Below are positions 2,375 to 14,860 of a DNA stretch of 16,000 nucleotides, piece after piece. Below the pieces are notes generated by a model that saw nothing but the letters and a program-made list of their open reading frames with translations, did not search any database and was not told the DNA's origin. This DNA comes from Marinobacterium nitratireducens (GTDB lineage: Bacteria; Pseudomonadota; Gammaproteobacteria; Pseudomonadales; Balneatricaceae): contig NZ_BMLT01000011.1 of NCBI RefSeq assembly GCF_014645375.1, positions 109,632-125,631 on the forward strand, in the 5' to 3' direction. Position 1 is the first letter of the stretch; the number at the start of each line of letters is the position of its first letter. The translations under genes and the position numbers were made by a program.

Positions 2375-3010
2375 TCATCGGGCGTCGCCAAGCTCGAGAC
2401 GGGTTTTCTCCAGCAACTGGCGTACTTCTTCCCGGCGACCGCGATCAGCCAGCGAGCGTCCGGGACGGTCAGGTGCATGCTCGGCGTTCTGCAGATACTT
2501 GACCGCTTCATCGTAGCGCTTCTGCTTCACCAGTAAGTCTGCGTAGAAGTAATTGGGGTCTATGCCGTCCGGGTTGATTGCCAGCGCTTTTCGCAGCAGT
2601 TCTTCGGCCTTCTTGTCGTTGCCGAATGCGATCGGCCAGCCCGGTACCTGGTAGTATAGAGACCCCAGCGAAGTGTATGCCGAGCCGTCCAGCGCGCCGG
2701 CGTCCAGCTTCAGCGCCTGTTCCAGCTCGCTGCGGGCTTCCTTGACGTACTTGAGCGCGCCGAGCCCGCCCCGGGCGCCGGCATAGCTGGCGCCGATGAT
2801 GGCGGACCAGATCAGGTAACGGGCATCGTCCGGTTGCTGTATCAGCTCCCGGTGAATATCGTCATTGAGCGCCTCGAATTCCTTTTCCTGGCGAGAGCCC
2901 TCCAGTTGGTACTTGATTTCGGCCCAGCGTGACTGGTACTCCGTCAGCGGTGCCGCCAGCAGGGGGGTGCTGGCGAGCGCCAGCAGGGCCGCTGTCAACC
3001 AGGTTTTCAT
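2375..3010 (-). CDS. Secreted TPR-like repeat protein
   Basis: Start chosen at MKTWLTAALLALASTPLLAAP (signal-peptide-like, no lipobox Cys), preceded by AAGGAG. The ATG overlaps the upstream SDR stop as ATGA. TPR-like helical repeats are present (e.g. YFYADLLVKQKRYDEAVKYLQNA). The track ORF start at 3025 (MQGEV) lies inside the SDR gene and has no RBS. Confidence 0.7.
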   Translation of the reverse strand: MKTWLTAALLALASTPLLAAPLTEYQSRWAEIKYQLEGSRQEKEFEALNDDIHRELIQQPDDARYLIWSAIIGASYAGARGGLGALKYVKEARSELEQALKLDAGALDGSAYTSLGSLYYQVPGWPIAFGNDKKAEELLRKALAINPDGIDPNYFYADLLVKQKRYDEAVKYLQNAEHAPDRPGRSLADRGRREEVRQLLEKTRLELGDAR

Positions 3011-3777
3011 GACTTCTCCTTGCAATGAGCCTTGATGGTGTCGAGTTGTTTGCCGATGGCGCCGTCGACCAGGCGTGGCATCAGCGCGTTGATGCGGGTG
3101 AACAGTGATTCGGGAAAGCCCAGCACCTTGCTGGTTCGGGGGGACTGGATGAGCCCGGCGACGGCATCGGCGACAACCGAGGGGGCATCCACCCTGTTCC
3201 CGAGCGCTCGGTTGAGCTCGACAGCTTCGGGGCTGTTGAGCGCGGTATCGGTGGCACGGGGAGCAAGCCAGGAAACACGGATGCCGGTATCCCGCAGTTC
3301 GCGGCCCAGGGCCTCACTGAAGCGCTTGAGGCCGCCCTTGGAGGCTCCGTAGGCGACATAGCCGGGGTAGCCTATCTCACCCAGTACCGAGCCGATATTG
3401 ATGATCTGACTGCCGGGATGCAGGCGTGGCACCAGGGCATGGATGATCGCCATCGGTGCCAGCAGGTTGATGCGCATCAGCCGTTCGATCGCCAGCCAGT
3501 CGCTGTTGTCGAAGCGCTGAAGCTCCTGCACGCCGGCACAGTTGATCAGCACGTCAGGCACGCGTTCGCCAAGTGCCTCGACCAGCCGGATGCCGGCATC
3601 CGGTGCGGCCAGATCCTGGGTCAGTATCTCGTGGCTGCCCGGCAGTAACGACAGCTGTTCCTCCAGGCGTCGGGCGTCGCGGGCCACCAGTATCAACCGG
3701 TGACCGTCGTTGGCAAGCCTGACGGCGATGGCACGACCGATTCCGCCGCTGGCGCCGGTCAGCAGTATCCGTTTCAT
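3007..3777 (-). CDS. Short-chain dehydrogenase/reductase (SDR)
   Basis: MKRILLTGASGGIGRAIA (TGxxxGxG Rossmann motif), NCAG, and YGASK (YxxxK catalytic motif). The start ATG overlaps the upstream stop as ATGA. The 407-aa track ORF (to 4230) has an Arg/Pro-rich N-terminal extension that overlaps the upstream gene out of frame, so I rejected it. Confidence 0.9.
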   Translation of the reverse strand: MKRILLTGASGGIGRAIAVRLANDGHRLILVARDARRLEEQLSLLPGSHEILTQDLAAPDAGIRLVEALGERVPDVLINCAGVQELQRFDNSDWLAIERLMRINLLAPMAIIHALVPRLHPGSQIINIGSVLGEIGYPGYVAYGASKGGLKRFSEALGRELRDTGIRVSWLAPRATDTALNSPEAVELNRALGNRVDAPSVVADAVAGLIQSPRTSKVLGFPESLFTRINALMPRLVDGAIGKQLDTIKAHCKEKS

Positions 3778-7251: not shown

Positions 7252-7471
7252 GCCCGTAGCGGCGCTGATCCCGAATGCGGCGGATCGGCGCGCTGTCAAT
7301 CTTGACATTCGCGGCTTTTCGCAGGGCTCGAGACGGGGACTTCGGTGCTGAATACACCGAAAAATTAGGCTCTTAAGCCCGGTGTCAAGAAAATAATTTT
7401 ATTACCGGACTGCGTTCTGAGTGAAGATTCGCCAGTTTGTGACGGGGCCCGATATTGCTGGCTTCGGGGGC

Positions 7472-7671: not shown

Positions 7672-8604
7672 ATGCCCATCAAGATTCCTGACCAGTTGCC
7701 GGCTGCCGACCTGTTGCGAAGCGAGAACATCTTCGTGATGAGCGAGTCCCGCGCGATGCATCAGGACGTGCGGCCGCTGAAAGTCGTGATTCTCAATCTG
7801 ATGCCGAAGAAGATCGAGACCGAAAACCAGCTGGTCCGACTGCTGTCGAACACGCCGCTGCAGGTGGATATCGAACTGCTGCGTATCGATAATCGCGAGA
7901 GTCGCCATACGCCTGCGGATCATCTCAACAGCTTCTACCGCAATTTCGACGAAATTCGCGAGCGCAATTTCGACGGCATGATCATTACCGGTGCGCCGCT
8001 TGGGCTGGTGTCGTTCGAGGACGTCCATTACTGGGATTCGGTGCTGGAAATCATCCGCTGGTCGCGTTTGCACGTCAGCTCGACGCTGTTTCTCTGCTGG
8101 GCCGCCCAGGCGGGGCTCAAGGCACTGTACGATCTGCCAAAACGCACCCGGGAAAGCAAGCTTTCCGGCATCTACGAGCACCTCACCCTGGTGCCGAACG
8201 ATCCGCTGGTGCGGGGTTTCGACGACAGTTTCTTCGCTCCCCATTCGCGCTATGCGGACTTTCCGGTGGAGTTCGTCGAAGCCAATACCGATCTGCGTGT
8301 GCTGGCAGCGTCCGAGGTCGCCGGTGGCTATCTGATGGCCAGCGCGGACCGGCGCCAGGTGTATCTGACCGGTCATCCGGAGTACGACAGCATGACGCTG
8401 GCGCAGGAGTACCATCGCGATGTGCTGGCGGGGCTGGATCCGGCCCTGCCCGAACACTACTTCCCCGGCGACGATCCCGAGCAGACCCCGCGCAACCGCT
8501 GGCGCAGCCACGGCAATCTGCTGTTCTCGAACTGGCTCAACTACTACGTCTATCAGATCACGCCGTACGATCTCAGCGTGATGGAAACGAAGATAGACGA
8601 CTGA
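7672..8604 (+). CDS. metA: Homoserine O-succinyltransferase (MetA/MetAS)
   Basis: 310 aa, near-collinear with my recollection of E. coli MetA: [93 protein letters not shown]. The TGAPLG (Gly) context suggests succinyl rather than acetyl specificity (inference). The track ORF start at 7567 is upstream of the RBS and was rejected. Confidence 0.95.
8558..8604 (+). repeat. Direct repeat copy 1, the authentic last 47 nt of metA including TGA
   Basis: TCACGCCGTACGATCTCAGCGTGATGGAAACGAAGATAGACGACTGA. It recurs at 8807-8853 and 8996-9042 with one mismatch (C8597 versus A). Confidence 0.95.
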
Positions 8605-8794
8605 CGTAGGTTGGGTCTAGGTCCGAAGGACCGTAACCCAACGCCGGCCCACCCGCCTGCCAGCCGCAACCAATCGATCTGCACAGGGGGTCTCGGTCGC
8701 CACCGCAGCCGGATCGACCAGTGTTGGGTTACGACGCGCCCGAAACTCACGCCATTCCGGCACTCCCTGCCCTGCGCGTCTAGACCCAACCTAC
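8605..8794. mobile_element. Palindromic ~190-bp element, copy E1 (complete), with 15-bp perfect terminal inverted repeats; MITE-like, non-coding
   Basis: Left end GTAGGTTGGGTCTAG (8606-8620) is the exact reverse complement of the right end CTAGACCCAACCTAC (8780-8794). An inner 11-bp inverted repeat is CGTAACCCAAC (8632-8642) / GTTGGGTTACG (8723-8733). A local hairpin is GGTCC-GAA-GGACC (8620-8632). No credible ORF. No target-site duplication is evident at the TIR edges. Confidence 0.5.
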
Positions 8795-8802
8795 AAAGCG
8801 AC

Positions 8803-8853
8803 CAGGTCACGCCGTACGATCTCAGCGTGATGGAAACGAAGATAGAAGACTGA
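8803..8853 (+). pseudogene. Displaced metA 3'-terminal fragment (direct repeat copy 2), encodes ...[16 protein letters not shown]
   Basis: 51 nt align with metA 8554-8604 with 2 mismatches (I to V and D to E at protein level). No upstream metA sequence is attached. Confidence 0.85.
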
Positions 8854-8995
8854 CGTAGGTTGGGTCTAGGTCCGAAGGACCGTAACCCAACGCCGGCCCA
8901 CCCGCCTGCCAGCCGCAACCAATCGATCTGCACAGGGGGTCTCGGTCGCCACCGCAGCCGGATCGACCAGTGTTGGGTTACGACGCGCCCGAAAC
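8854..8995. mobile_element. Palindromic element copy E2 (right part deleted)
   Basis: 8854-9002 is identical by eye to 8605-8753. The right TIR is missing, and the copy ends exactly at a TCACGCC heptamer shared with the metA tail. Confidence 0.5.
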
Positions 8996-9042
8996 TCACG
9001 CCGTACGATCTCAGCGTGATGGAAACGAAGATAGAAGACTGA
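8996..9042 (+). pseudogene. Displaced metA 3'-terminal fragment (direct repeat copy 3), encodes ...[14 protein letters not shown]
   Basis: Identical to 8807-8853. Confidence 0.85.
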
Positions 9043-9214
9043 AGTAGTATGGGTGGGTGGCGCCGCCGCGCCGCCTTCCTTTCTGGTTGCACGACGTCTG
9101 CGGCGGCATAACCCATCACCGCCGCAACACTGCCCCGCGTTGCCGGCTGAACCCAATCGATCTGCACTACGATCTGTTGTCGGGTTGCGCGACTTCGTCG
9201 CCAGACCCAACCTA
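9043..9214. repeat. Diverged third copy (E3) of the palindromic element
   Basis: The block order matches E1: AGTAGTATGGGTGGGTGG vs CGTAGGTTGGGTCTAGGT; CATAACCCATCACCGCC vs CGTAACCCAACGCCGGCC; CCAATCGATCTGCAC identical; GTCGGGTTGCGCGAC vs GTTGGGTTACGACGC; CCAGACCCAACCTAG vs TCTAGACCCAACCTAC. Its right end overlaps the stop codon of the convergent gene. Confidence 0.6.
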
Positions 9215-10051
9215 GGGTTGGCTGTCGGTCAACCGTATCCCATCGTCCCCGATCTCGATCAGGCGCTGCTTGAACAGGCTGCCGATCGCCATTTTGAAGG
9301 CCTTCTTGCTGCAGCCGAACAGACGCGAAATGGTATCCGGATCGGTCTTGTCGTGGGCGGCAATGAAACCGCCTTCGACCCTCAGCCGCTCGAGGATCTG
9401 TCCGGCCAGGCCGTCGACCTTGTTATAGCCGGGCTGGTCGAGGCAGAGGTCGAGCTTGCCGTCGGGCCGGACCCGCTTGACGTAGCCTCTGATTTGCTGG
9501 CCGAAATGCACCCGGCGAAACAGGTCCGACTGGTGGATCAGGCCCCAGTGCTGGCCGTCGACGATGGCCTTGAAGCCGAGGTCGGTGCGGTTGGCGATGA
9601 CCAGATCGACCGCCTGGCCGTCGCGGTAGTTGGCGGGGGTGCGGTCGAGGAAGCGGTCGAGCTTGCTGGAGGCGACGATGCGGTCGCTGCGATCGATGAG
9701 GATATGCACCAGGTAACTCTTTCCGGCTTCCATGCGACGGTGCTGTTCGCCGAACGGAGCCAGTAGCTGCTTCGGCAGCCCCCAGTCGAGAAAGGCTCCG
9801 ACCTTGGTAACGTCGGCGCAGCGCAGCAGTGCGAAGTCACCGACCTGGGCCAGTGGTTTCTGGGTAGTGGCGACCAGATAGTCTTCGGAATCCAGCGACA
9901 CGAAGACCTCGAGCCAGTCGCCCGTCTTGCAGTCTGCCGGCACGTAGCGGGCCGGCAGCAGAATTTCGCCCAGTTCCCCGCCGTCGAGATAAACGCCGAA
10001 GTCCTTTTGCTTGATCACCTGCAAGCGGTTGAAGCGACCGAGATCGGCCAT
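9212..10051 (-). CDS. S1-domain RNA-binding protein, CvfB/YitL family
   Basis: 279 aa from MADLGRFNRLQVIKQKDFGVYLDGGELGEILLP (repeated S1-like modules plus a C-terminal winged-helix-like segment ISRLFGCSKKAFKMAIGSLFKQRLI). GGAGGG RBS lies 7 nt upstream of the ATG at 10051. The 354-aa track ORF extension to 10276 runs into luxS and was rejected. Confidence 0.8.
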   Translation of the reverse strand: MADLGRFNRLQVIKQKDFGVYLDGGELGEILLPARYVPADCKTGDWLEVFVSLDSEDYLVATTQKPLAQVGDFALLRCADVTKVGAFLDWGLPKQLLAPFGEQHRRMEAGKSYLVHILIDRSDRIVASSKLDRFLDRTPANYRDGQAVDLVIANRTDLGFKAIVDGQHWGLIHQSDLFRRVHFGQQIRGYVKRVRPDGKLDLCLDQPGYNKVDGLAGQILERLRVEGGFIAAHDKTDPDTISRLFGCSKKAFKMAIGSLFKQRLIEIGDDGIRLTDSQP

Positions 10052-10093
10052 GAAAAGCCCTCCATTCCTGCGCCCGCGCGGCAGGACAAGACG

Positions 10094-10123
10094 AAAATAA
10101 AAACGGAGCCGAAGCGGCTCCGT
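10094..10123 (-). terminator. Rho-independent terminator of luxS
   Basis: On the minus strand: ACGGAGCCG-CTT-CGGCTCCGT (9-bp stem) followed by TTTTTATTTT, 21 nt after the luxS stop. Confidence 0.8.
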
Positions 10124-10143
10124 GATCGGTGCCCAGGCGCTAC

Positions 10144-10656
10144 TCAGGAGTGCTTGGCGAGAAAGTCCGCATCCAGTTTGAGCTGGTCGTTGCTGTTGAT
10201 GCCGACGCCGCGGCTGCGGATGTTCTCGGCGATCTGCTTGGCTTCCTCCAGCGAGTGCATCTGGTAGGTGCCGCACTGGTATTCGTTGAGTTCGGGAATC
10301 TCGTTCTGCGCCTGAACCTGGAGCACGTCGTTCATCGCCGCAAGCCAGGCTTCCGCCACCCGGGTCTCGTCCGGGGTGCCGATCAGGCTCATGTAGAAGC
10401 CGGTGCGGCAGCCCATCGGAGAGATGTCGATGATCTCGACGCCGTTACCGTTGAGGTGGTCGCGCATGAAACCGGCGAACAGGTGCTCGAGTGTGTGGAT
10501 GCCTTTTTCGCTGAGGATTTCCTCGTTGGGGCGGCAGAATCGCAGGTCGAACACGGTGATGGTATCGCCGCCAGGCGTAGTCATGGTCTTGGCGACGCGC
10601 ACCGCGGGCGCGGCCATGCGGGTGTGATCTACGGTGAAGCTATCGAGCAGTGGCAT
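10144..10656 (-). CDS. luxS: S-ribosylhomocysteine lyase (LuxS, AI-2 synthase)
   Basis: 170 aa: [14 protein letters not shown], metal-binding HTLEHL, and [11 protein letters not shown] with the catalytic Cys. AAGAGGA RBS. Confidence 0.95.
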
Positions 10657-14484: not shown

Positions 14485-14572
14485 GGAGGGATGGCTGAGT
14501 GGTCGAAAGCACCGGTCTTGAAAACCGGCGGGTCGAGAGGCTCCCAGGGTTCGAATCCCTGTCCCTCCGCCA
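14485..14572 (+). tRNA. tRNA-Ser (anticodon UGA), CCA encoded
   Basis: Acceptor GGAGGGA/TCCCTCC, anticodon arm CCGGT-CTTGAAA-ACCGG, long variable arm, T-arm CAGGGTTCGAATCCCTG. Close to my recollection of E. coli serT. Confidence 0.95.
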
Positions 14573-14597
14573 TCGCAAAAAGGAGTAATGCTGTCGT

Positions 14598-14673
14598 TCC
14601 CCGATAGCTCAGTTGGTAGAGCAGTAGACTGTTAATCTATTGGTCGCTGGTTCGAGTCCAGCTCGGGGAGCCA
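14598..14673 (+). tRNA. tRNA-Asn (anticodon GUU), CCA encoded
   Basis: Acceptor TCCCCGA/TCGGGGA, anticodon loop CTGTTAA, T-arm GCTGGTTCGAGTCCAGC. Confidence 0.95.
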
Positions 14674-14682
14674 CTAAAAGTT

Positions 14683-14758
14683 GGGTCGTTAGCTCAGTTG
14701 GTAGAGCAGTTGGCTTTTAACCAATTGGTCATAGGTTCGAGTCCTATACGACCCACCA
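14683..14758 (+). tRNA. tRNA-Lys (anticodon UUU), copy 1, CCA encoded
   Basis: GGGTCGTTAGCTCAGTTGGTAGAGCAGTTGGCTTTTAACCAATTGGTCATAGGTTCGAGTCCTATACGACCCACCA, nearly identical to my recollection of E. coli lysT. Confidence 0.95.
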
Positions 14759-14784
14759 CTTCTTCTCGGAAGTGGACCCAAAGT

Positions 14785-14860
14785 GGGTCGTTAGCTCAGT
14801 TGGTAGAGCAGTTGGCTTTTAACCAATTGGTCATAGGTTCGAGTCCTATACGACCCACCA
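14785..14860 (+). tRNA. tRNA-Lys (anticodon UUU), copy 2, identical to copy 1
   Basis: Exact repeat of 14683-14758 after a 26-nt spacer. Confidence 0.95.

Follow-up and report, generated by a model that had tools for sequence, protein, structure and literature searches.

The metA locus of Marinobacterium nitratireducens raises the question of how the 3' end of a housekeeping gene has come to stand three times in a row, with a palindromic element directly 3' of each copy. A sequence-only reading of the window, by which we mean the whole 16-kb stretch of DNA analyzed here, saw in this layout the attL/attR-like trace of circular DNA integrating into the end of a gene, and offered unequal crossing-over or another local duplication at the metA terminus as a fallback. 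The fallback is judged to be the better explanation. Three REP doublets (REPINs, BIME-like) probably lie clustered in the spacer between metA and the convergent cvfB-like gene, the tails being a locally duplicated flank and not attachment sites. Overall, the metA array is a fairly ordinary new example of a described arrangement, not a new kind of integrating mini-element.

The array between metA and cvfB

The gene metA (7672-8604, forward strand) is intact and encodes a homoserine O-succinyltransferase of 310 aa (Pfam HTS, E 3e-133), which matches the M. nitratireducens MetA P0001 at 100% identity. The convergent cvfB-like S1-domain gene lies at 9212-10276 on the reverse strand (Pfam S1_2 and CvfB_WH), coordinates that denote the maximal ORF, homologues having about 279 aa. 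Exact-protein look-ups with the MetA and CvfB of the window returned no second M. nitratireducens assembly.

The array itself has the order T1-E1-x-T2-E2-T3-E3, in which T denotes the last 47 nt of metA, TGA included, and E the palindromic element. T1 (8558-8604, forward strand) is the genuine tail of the gene; it opens with a small hairpin (TCACGC-12 nt-GCGTGA) and carries C8598, so that it ends in GACGAC, the state nearest the ..IDE ending of relatives. T2 (8807-8853, forward strand) and T3 (8996-9042, forward strand) are non-coding copies that are identical to each other in sequence and differ from T1 at a single base, with A8847 and A9036 in place of C8598 (GAAGAC versus GACGAC). The homology of T2 possibly extends 4 nt further upstream, where CAGG at 8803 faces CAGA at 8554, and over 200 nt the identity of 8554-8753 to 8803-9002 is 99%. 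The terminal 14-mer of the tail, TAGGTTGGGTCTAG, was observed four times against 0.56 expected, and the three 47-nt copies are not attributable to chance; the 16-kb window holds no further copy of the tail beyond T1, T2, and T3.

The three elements are not equivalent, since E1 is complete, E2 is a shortened copy of E1, and E3 is a diverged member of the same family. E1 (8605-8794, forward strand) is a complete REP doublet of 190 nt (REPIN/BIME-1-like). Its 5' REP at 8606-8642 (forward strand) reads GTAG GTTGGGT CTA GGTCC GAA GGACC GTA ACCCAAC, its conserved core, AACCAATCGATCTGCAC, occupies 8668-8684 (forward strand), and its inverted 3' REP, which has a long loop, spans 8723-8794 and ends in CCCAACCTAC. 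Between units 1 and 2 lies an unrepeated filler x of 12 nt (AAAGCGACCAGG, 8795-8806, forward strand), the last 4 nt of which, CAGG, correspond to CAGA in metA and may belong to the duplicated tail. E2 (8854-8995, forward strand) is 142 nt long and 100% identical to E1 over these 142 nt, and it lacks both the last 48 nt of E1, which comprise most of the 3' REP, and the 12-nt filler. The join of E2 to T3 falls at a microhomology, TCACGCC (8996-9002, forward strand), which stands both inside E1 (8747-8753) and at the beginning of the tail.

E3 (9043-9215, forward strand) shows about 77% identity over the aligned parts and lies directly 3' of T3, as the resident element does in relatives. It comprises a long-loop 5' REP (GTAGTATGGGT..ACCCATC) with a terminator-like hairpin inside it (9055-9076), a core at 9151-9167, and an inverted 3' REP ending in CCCAACCTAG. 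The terminal CTA of E3 is the TAG stop of the cvfB-like gene, and the same holds in M. aestuariivivens. The junction words of the array are GCGACCAGGTCACGCC, GAAGACTGACGTAGG, and CGAAACTCACGCCGTACG.

Much of what the sequence-only reading described is recovered in this anatomy, namely the threefold tail with one mismatch, the identity of the segments between the tails (142 nt of E2 and E1, then the shared TCACGCC), and the diverged homologous element behind the third tail. Its palindromic element of about 190 bp does follow all three tails, in complete form in E1, shortened in E2, and diverged in E3. The ORFs inside the array gave no Pfam matches and Rfam returned nothing in the array, either at the gathering threshold or at E<=1, and readings of the array as a known structured RNA or as an overlooked protein gene were rejected on these grounds.

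Identity and distribution of the REP doublets

Each arm of an element consists of a GTAG head and an imperfect hairpin (CGTAGGTTGGGT..GTAACCCAAC), and two such arms are inverted around the conserved core. In addition to the head and imperfect palindrome of 8606-8642, equivalent GTAG-type heads stand at 8794, 8855, 9044, and 9215. In E1 the inverted arms are 8606-8629 and 8771-8794, the inner arms are 8632-8660 and 8705-8733, and as single-stranded DNA the element folds into one long hairpin with both ends paired (-51 kcal/mol, z -5.3). The fit of GTTGGGT/ACCCAAC to GTTRRRY/RYYYAAC prompted consideration of an integron attC-like reading, but intI is absent, the motif is nothing more than the stem of the REP, and the family occurs as dispersed doublets; that reading was accordingly dropped.

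REPs of this type occur in at least 120 metagenome stretches, and an inverted head came next after 58 of 85 heads. The core A[AC]CCAATCGATC..GATCGAT is lineage-specific, being present in 0 of 88 metagenome REPs. The metA-cvfB elements probably belong to a Marinobacterium subfamily of a widespread GTAG-type REP. A RAYT homologue with 44% identity to E. coli RayT (E 2e-24) is encoded on the metagenome contig L076, 30-260 nt from GTAGGTCGGGT and GTAGGTTGGGT REPs; no Marinobacterium protein is among the best 120 RAYT homologues. The GTAG head, the imperfect palindrome, and the inverted doublets are held in common with known REP/REPIN-RAYT systems (for example, the Coxiella burnetii REP GTAGGTTGGGCTGAGCTTGCGAAGCCCAAC), as are the dispersed distribution, the position at gene ends between convergent genes, and, in L076, a RAYT beside the same REP type. 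Unlike those systems, the family has a low apparent copy number in Marinobacterium relatives and a lineage-specific core.

The sole M. nitratireducens sequence read, the 16-kb window, contains no other copy of the family, which is nevertheless dispersed, with four loci in M. aestuariivivens and three in the Oceanospirillaceae MAG HF-Din08, all of them intergenic. One of the copies, at another M. aestuariivivens locus (L005), is identical to the 5' REP of E1 at 38 of 38 positions. The copy number in relatives looks modest, below that of classical REPs, at four matches in 5.9 Mb as counted with a strict composite pattern over a genome collection without M. nitratireducens.

At the metA-cvfB spacer itself, M. 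aestuariivivens (L002) and L031 carry a single element with no duplication of the tail, and L003 carries none. A flank repeat of at least 14 nt was found at 0 of 7 other copies of the family (two related genomes), and a long flank duplication at one of 120 metagenome REP loci, L091, where a REPIN is accompanied by a 39-bp flank duplication and filler. The ancestral occupant of the metA-cvfB spacer is probably E3; pairwise identities fail to single it out as the orthologue of the M. aestuariivivens element, and the assignment is made from its position and from the stem type of its 5' REP.

Growth of the cluster and competing explanations

The order and mechanism of events are inferred here from one sequence. 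The ancestral state would have been metA-tail-E3-cvfB, like that of relatives. A second family member, E1, would then have arrived together with the 12-nt filler, with duplication of 47-51 nt of the upstream flank, by a templated insertion or a template switch in which the original template was rejoined upstream of the exit point, although a staggered break would have had an equivalent outcome, and the product would have been T-E1-x-T-E3. The non-coding tail copy would subsequently have acquired the C>A change. A second slippage or template switch may then have re-copied the first 142 nt of E1 and rejoined at the 7-nt TCACGCC common to E1 and the start of the tail, giving T1-E1-x-T2-E2-T3-E3; alternatively, an unequal exchange may have been followed by a deletion of 60 nt. 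REP hairpins that stall replication are likely promoters of both events, and the element itself would presumably be spread by RAYT (an HUH tyrosine transposase) acting in trans.

Several features of the array are in keeping with such a history. The derived base is common to T2 and T3, and T1 retains the state nearer to relatives. The 7-nt microhomology within the element at which E2 meets T3 is a sign of illegitimate recombination or template switching, not of site-specific integration. In addition, a tandem duplication that begins inside a gene always preserves the first gene copy, which accounts for the intact metA and makes a special integrative design unnecessary. When E1 with its filler, and also the 60-nt segment absent from E2, were compared by BLAST with 150 fetched loci, neither the filler x nor the 3' loop had a match, and neither the donor copy of E1 nor the origin of the filler was found in the 16-kb window or the fetched loci. 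Somewhat against this history, the two junctions coincide with one and the same TCACGCC or lie no more than 4 nt from it, a mild coincidence of about 1 in 10 under purely random breakage.

A more active origin of the duplicated flank is conceivable, if doubtful: a RAYT/HUH enzyme, or a strand transfer programmed by the REP hairpin, might make the 'flank + REPIN' unit. Clusters with a duplicated 5' flank would then be a regular by-product of REPIN mobilisation and not of passive slippage. The same architecture has been described in P. fluorescens (16 clusters, PMC3116915) and beside rayt genes (PMC2817692), L091 adds its REPIN with duplicated flank and filler, and both duplicated flanks, at metA and at L091, start at or contain inverted-repeat arms. 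However, such duplications are uncommon, with a single case among 120 metagenome loci and none among 7 family copies, transposition of the IS200/IS605 HUH type proceeds without target duplication (PMC2817692), and the microhomology at E2/T3 is unrelated to the REP heads. Only tentatively can it be proposed that the arrival of a REPIN itself brings about a duplication of about 40-50 bp of upstream flank, with filler bases, and so seeds tandem 'flank + REPIN' clusters; the trigger could be a template switch programmed by the REP hairpin or by RAYT. If this were true, the metA locus (amplified, with a microhomology junction) and L091 (a single insertion with a 39-bp repeat) would represent two stages of one active gene-end-copying process.

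It is improbable that a foreign allele was integrated, that is, that the metA tail and E1 of a related strain, carried on a DNA fragment or circle, recombined ahead of the recipient's own tail and E3, by a Campbell-type single crossover or by homology-facilitated illegitimate recombination, with unit 2 added later by local slippage. In favour of this reading, C/A8598 and perhaps also CAGA/CAGG (Ile>Val) separate the tail copies from T1, the related environmental metA P0003 has a Gln-Val variant at the latter position, and E1 and E3 differ by more than divergence in place would allow, the tails being nearly identical. However, E1-type elements were found at metA in no relative, no relative shows the E-D ending of T2 and T3, and the filler is left unexplained. 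Furthermore, a REPIN from elsewhere in the same genome accounts for E1 equally well, an identical 5' REP being present at other loci.

An artefact of assembly or a mixed population, whether a walk through a repeat graph or the merging of sub-populations with differing unit numbers, is very unlikely. The near-identical 200-nt repeat is longer than typical k-mers, and the contig of a related MAG (L001) breaks off 57 nt past metA, but three distinct junction sequences in the array argue against simple repeat expansion by the assembler, and each join (x/T2, T2(A)/E2, E2/T3, and T3/E3) has its own sequence, which must be present in reads. No path through all of the junctions is shorter than the reported one, so that the true copy number can only be equal or higher.

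The reading in terms of miniature integrative units is highly improbable. It supposes circles of 189-249 bp with the metA tail as attP, inserted by a tyrosine, serine, or IS110-type recombinase encoded elsewhere, so that the tail copies would be attL/attR-like. The tail-element-tail layout does leave the gene intact, and with the variant base 6 nt from the 3' end of the tail, a crossover beside the GTAG head fits the C in T1 and the A in T2 and T3. But the unit ends are inconsistent, unit 2 being a shortened unit 1 that lacks the filler and the element's 3' end and is joined at a microhomology within the element; the gene tail accompanies 0 of 7 family copies in relatives; a duplicated flank occurs at only 1 of 120 metagenome loci; relatives have a single element at metA with the tail not duplicated; and the family is an ordinary REP doublet at many unrelated sites. 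Nor does the window encode a recombinase or transposase, none having been found among 20 of its ORFs compared with Pfam, in agreement with the sequence-only reading. Of the miniature non-autonomous mobile units proposed there, what stands is a dispersed miniature family that needs mobilisation in trans, and what is not supported is the integrating circle. A long target-site duplication made by a transposase was also rejected, as other copies lack the duplication.

Comparison with described clusters

Although the sequence-only reading knew of no described family with such behaviour, precedents exist. In P. fluorescens SBW25 there are 16 clusters of tandem REPINs in which the 5' flank (f1) and a short f2 recur with the REPIN, alongside a short stretch that is not repeated (PMC3116915; Bertels and Rainey, 2011), and gene 3' ends with their stop codon have been found built into BIMEs (PMC2817692; Nunvar et al., 2010). 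No mechanism for the growth of tandem REPIN clusters has been established (PMC3337134).

The metA locus has the composition of such a cluster, with T(47)+E1, the 12-nt filler x, and T+E2 at 99-100% identity. As in the SBW25 clusters and the BIME-2-type arrays of E. coli, the unit is made up of a 5' flank, a REP doublet, and a short 3' piece, the units are near-identical, head-to-tail, and two to five in number, and a short unrepeated stretch, here the filler, lies between them. Unlike in those clusters, the flank at metA comes from the coding region of a housekeeping gene, stop codon included, a different and older member of the family stands in the last unit, one unit is shortened at a microhomology, and the doublet, at 190 nt, is longer and contains a conserved core in its middle. 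In the BIMEs of Nunvar et al., as at metA, the repeated inter-REP segment runs from the 3' end of a gene through its stop codon and the spacer as far as the downstream REP; there, however, the gene is rayt itself, whereas here it is metA, with no rayt nearby. REP-doublet clusters with duplicated flanks are thereby extended to Marinobacterium, and an odd-looking metA locus is explained without a new class of integrating mini-elements. The value of the locus is modest, as a well-resolved case of cluster growth, in which an older resident stands beside a newcomer and its filler, T2 and T3 have a derived base in common, and one junction lies on 7 nt of microhomology.

Two other kinds of element invite comparison. 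Accretion of ICEs and their cis-mobilisable remnants, CIMEs, takes place at gene 3' ends, an example being ICESt1/CIME at fda of Streptococcus thermophilus, and there too tandem units lie between direct repeats derived from the gene's 3' end, and the gene itself is preserved. Such elements, however, measure kilobases, their att sites are defined, and they use a dedicated integrase, whereas the metA units measure 189-249 bp, have inconsistent ends, include a join at microhomology, and lie in a window with no recombinase. MITEs resemble the metA elements in being short and non-autonomous, with terminal inverted repeats and a flanking direct repeat. Their target duplications are 2-10 bp and are found at both ends of every copy, unlike the repeat at the metA locus, which is 47-51 bp long, comes with filler, and is missing from other copies.

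For genome annotation, the array calls for some caution: metA pseudo-tails and spurious ORFs of 80-204 codons cross it, and the stop codon of the neighbouring cvfB-like gene is supplied by the repeat.

The repeat array behind metA

The metA gene (7672-8604, plus strand; Pfam HTS, E 3e-133), whose product is 100% identical to the M. nitratireducens MetA protein P0001, converges on a cvfB-like S1-domain gene (9212-10276, minus strand; assigned by Pfam). Its final 47 nt, including the TGA, are present three times in tandem in the window, as the sequence-only reading had reported, at 8558-8604 (T1), 8807-8853 (T2) and 8996-9042 (T3). T2 and T3 are the same in sequence, T1 differs from both by one base (C8598 versus A), and segment 8554-8753 shares 99% identity with 8803-9002. 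The claim that every tail is followed by a copy of a palindromic element stands for E1 (8605-8794), which is complete and runs directly into a 12-nt filler, AAAGCGACCAGG, and for E3 (9043-9215), a diverged relative of E1. It has to be corrected for the second unit, because the elements are not equivalent: E2 (8854-8995) matches E1 at every base but is missing the last 48 nt of E1, and the filler as well.

Each end of E1 consists of a GTAG head and an imperfect hairpin, GTAG-GTTGGGT-CTA-(stem-loop)-GTA-ACCCAAC, and the two ends lie in inverted orientation around a conserved core, AACCAATCGATCTGCAC. Modelled as single-stranded DNA, the element is predicted to form a single long hairpin from its entire length (-51 kcal/mol, z -5.3). 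An element built in this way is a REP doublet (REPIN, BIME-1-like), and the family overall is REP/REPIN-like. The inter-REP core lies at 8668-8684, 8917-8933 and 9151-9167, and also in the loci L005, L009, L019, L020, L023, L025 and L013; its pattern is A[AC]CCAATCGATC-(7 nt)-GATCGAT(AT), with two to three GATC sites inside, and it might be a protein-binding site comparable to the IHF site of BIME-1. Family elements abut or supply stop codons. The cvfB stop, TAG on the minus strand, coincides with the CTA at the end of a REP doublet in both M. nitratireducens (9212-9215) and M. aestuariivivens (L002, 5128-5131), and at about 4516 in L025 the TAG stop of a gene overlaps a GTAG head.

Distribution and known counterparts

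A genome-collection scan with a composite of REP stem and core matched two related genomes, with four loci in M. aestuariivivens (the metA locus, L005, L025 and L023, the last with two tandem copies) and three in the Oceanospirillaceae MAG HF-Din08, whose MetA is 93% identical. Copies are not confined to metA ends, even if one does sit there in M. aestuariivivens. The 5' REP of the L005 copy matches that of E1 at 38/38 positions. The tandem copies in L023 (4927-5135) are short-form, 81-87% alike and without flank duplication, and a further head-to-head REP pair lies at 7280-7340 of this 8-kb locus.

When metagenomes were scanned for just the REP, at least 120 stretches matched, and most of the matches listed form inverted doublets, CGTAGGTTGGGTTAG..GTAACCCAAC-spacer-GTTGGGTTACG..CTAACCCAACCTACG. 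The Marinobacterium core occurs in none of the 88 metagenome REPs examined, and is therefore a lineage-specific addition. One metagenome contig, L076 (3100-3801), carries a RAYT gene directly adjoining REPs of E1's type and shows this class of REP in natural association with a RAYT. The gene starts at 3460 and is cut by the contig end, the several REPs upstream of it are of the GTAGGTCGGGT, GTAGGTTGGGT and GTAGGTCGGAT types, its product shares 44% identity with E. coli RayT (E 2e-24), and source annotations name its family REP-associated tyrosine transposase. The best 120 RAYT homologues listed include no Marinobacterium protein. A Coxiella REP flanking a RAYT, GTAGGTTGGGCTGAGCTTGCGAAGCCCAAC, has the same head as E1-type REPs (PMC2817692). 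Another contig, L100 (680-1400), holds a tandem array that repeats every ~153 bp and in which two REP types, GTTGGGT..ACCCAAC and GTAGGTCGGCTTAG..AAGCCGAC, alternate, as in a BIME-2-like cluster.

The sequence-only reading knew of no described family behaving in this way; however, 16 tandem REPIN clusters with repeated flanks have been described in Pseudomonas fluorescens SBW25 by Bertels & Rainey (PMC3116915), and the metA array matches their layout, filler included. It is therefore a new example of a known REP-doublet arrangement, and what is new is the genus, Marinobacterium, and the location at a housekeeping gene. Bertels & Rainey also remark that E. coli BIMEs show similar arrays and that no mechanism for them has been put forward (PMC3337134). 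Nunvar et al. report absorption of gene sequence into a BIME in four cases: the 3' end of a gene, rayt in each, together with the stop codon and the stretch up to the following REP (PMC2817692).

Origin of the tail copies

In M. aestuariivivens (MetA 87% identical) the metA-cvfB spacer is filled by a single family element and holds no tail repeat; in metagenome contig L031 (MetA 89%) an element lies right behind the metA stop; and in the more distant L003 (MetA 83%) the spacer is 71 bp long and the element is absent. The contig of the closest relative, HF-Din08, ends 57 nt past metA (L001, 4934-4990), and what follows the gene there is no REP sequence. E3 occupies the position of the resident elements in relatives, and its 5' REP shares their ATGGGT/ACCCAT stem and long loop. 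We therefore infer, from position rather than from pairwise identities, which are not decisive, that T3-E3 is the ancestral arrangement and E1 the newcomer.

The base differences among the tails give the relative order of events. In relatives metA ends in ..I-D-E (GAC GAA/GAG); T1 (GAC GAC) is one step from this ending and T2 and T3, both GAA GAC, are two, so that the latter pair share a derived change, one having been copied from the other. The E2/T3 junction falls on the heptamer TCACGCC, which lies inside E1 (8747-8753) and is also the first 7 nt of the tail; such a join is the mark left by slippage, template switching or deletion at a microhomology, and not by a recombinase acting on defined element ends. 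The simplest history would start from metA-T-E3. E1 and its filler would then have arrived, and 47-51 nt of flank have been duplicated in the process, to give T-E1-x-T-E3 (x, the filler); a C>A change in the non-coding tail copy would have followed; and last, the tail and the first 142 nt of E1 would have been re-copied and rejoined at TCACGCC. The intact metA needs no special explanation, since the first gene copy always stays complete when a tandem duplication has its left boundary within the gene. The alternative of local duplication at the metA terminus, which the sequence-only reading had also offered, is supported.

Alternative histories and side observations

The first duplication could instead stem from a foreign metA allele, through Campbell-type or homology-facilitated illegitimate recombination. 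The CAGG preceding T2 would encode Gln-Val, a variant found in the related protein P0003, which is a slight hint in this direction, but an E1-type element at metA was not found in any relative examined. L030 (ENA k141_166431, 1290-1417; MetA 93% identical) also shows the Gln-Val variant; there the last ~13 codons of metA are replaced, the gene reading ..YQVTPYD and then unrelated sequence (WE*), which could be due to insertion, to rearrangement or to chimerism of this short contig.

It is also possible that an active RAYT-linked process captures flanks, as L091 (CXWL01113649.1) would suggest: a 39-bp perfect direct repeat, ACTGCATTCCTTGATCGCTTTGTGACACAGTAAGACTAG, at 2982-3020 and 3147-3185 encloses a REP doublet (3043-3143) with filler on both sides, 22 nt before it and 3 nt (AAA) after it. 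Such cases are rare, however, L091 being the only other long, non-REP flank duplication among the 120 metagenome REP loci listed. Part of its repeat also occurs inverted at about 2876-2896. An assembly artefact is a possible source of the triplication, but the array holds four distinct junction sequences, and no shorter path would include all four.

The integrative mini-elements first proposed, circles that bear a tail and insert site-specifically, are not supported. Against them stand the microhomology join, the bare flanks elsewhere (direct repeats of at least 14 nt flank 0/7 other family copies, and L091 is alone among the 120 metagenome REP loci listed in its long flank repeat) and the lack of any recombinase gene in the window, as originally reported. 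A tRNA gene cluster at 14485-14860 (one Ser-TGA, one Asn-GTT and two Lys-TTT), unrelated to the tail copies, has no adjoining integrase within the window.

Open reading frames run through the array at 8553-9167 (minus strand, 204 codons), 8866-9210 (minus, 114) and 8611-8853 (plus, 80), the last terminating with the T2 pseudo-tail; they have no Pfam match and are therefore probably spurious, a trap for gene callers. At 9055-9076, within the long loop of the E3 5' REP, lies a terminator-like hairpin with a T-rich tract behind it; this may be the terminator that metA had originally, which would now stand about 440 nt farther from the stop codon.
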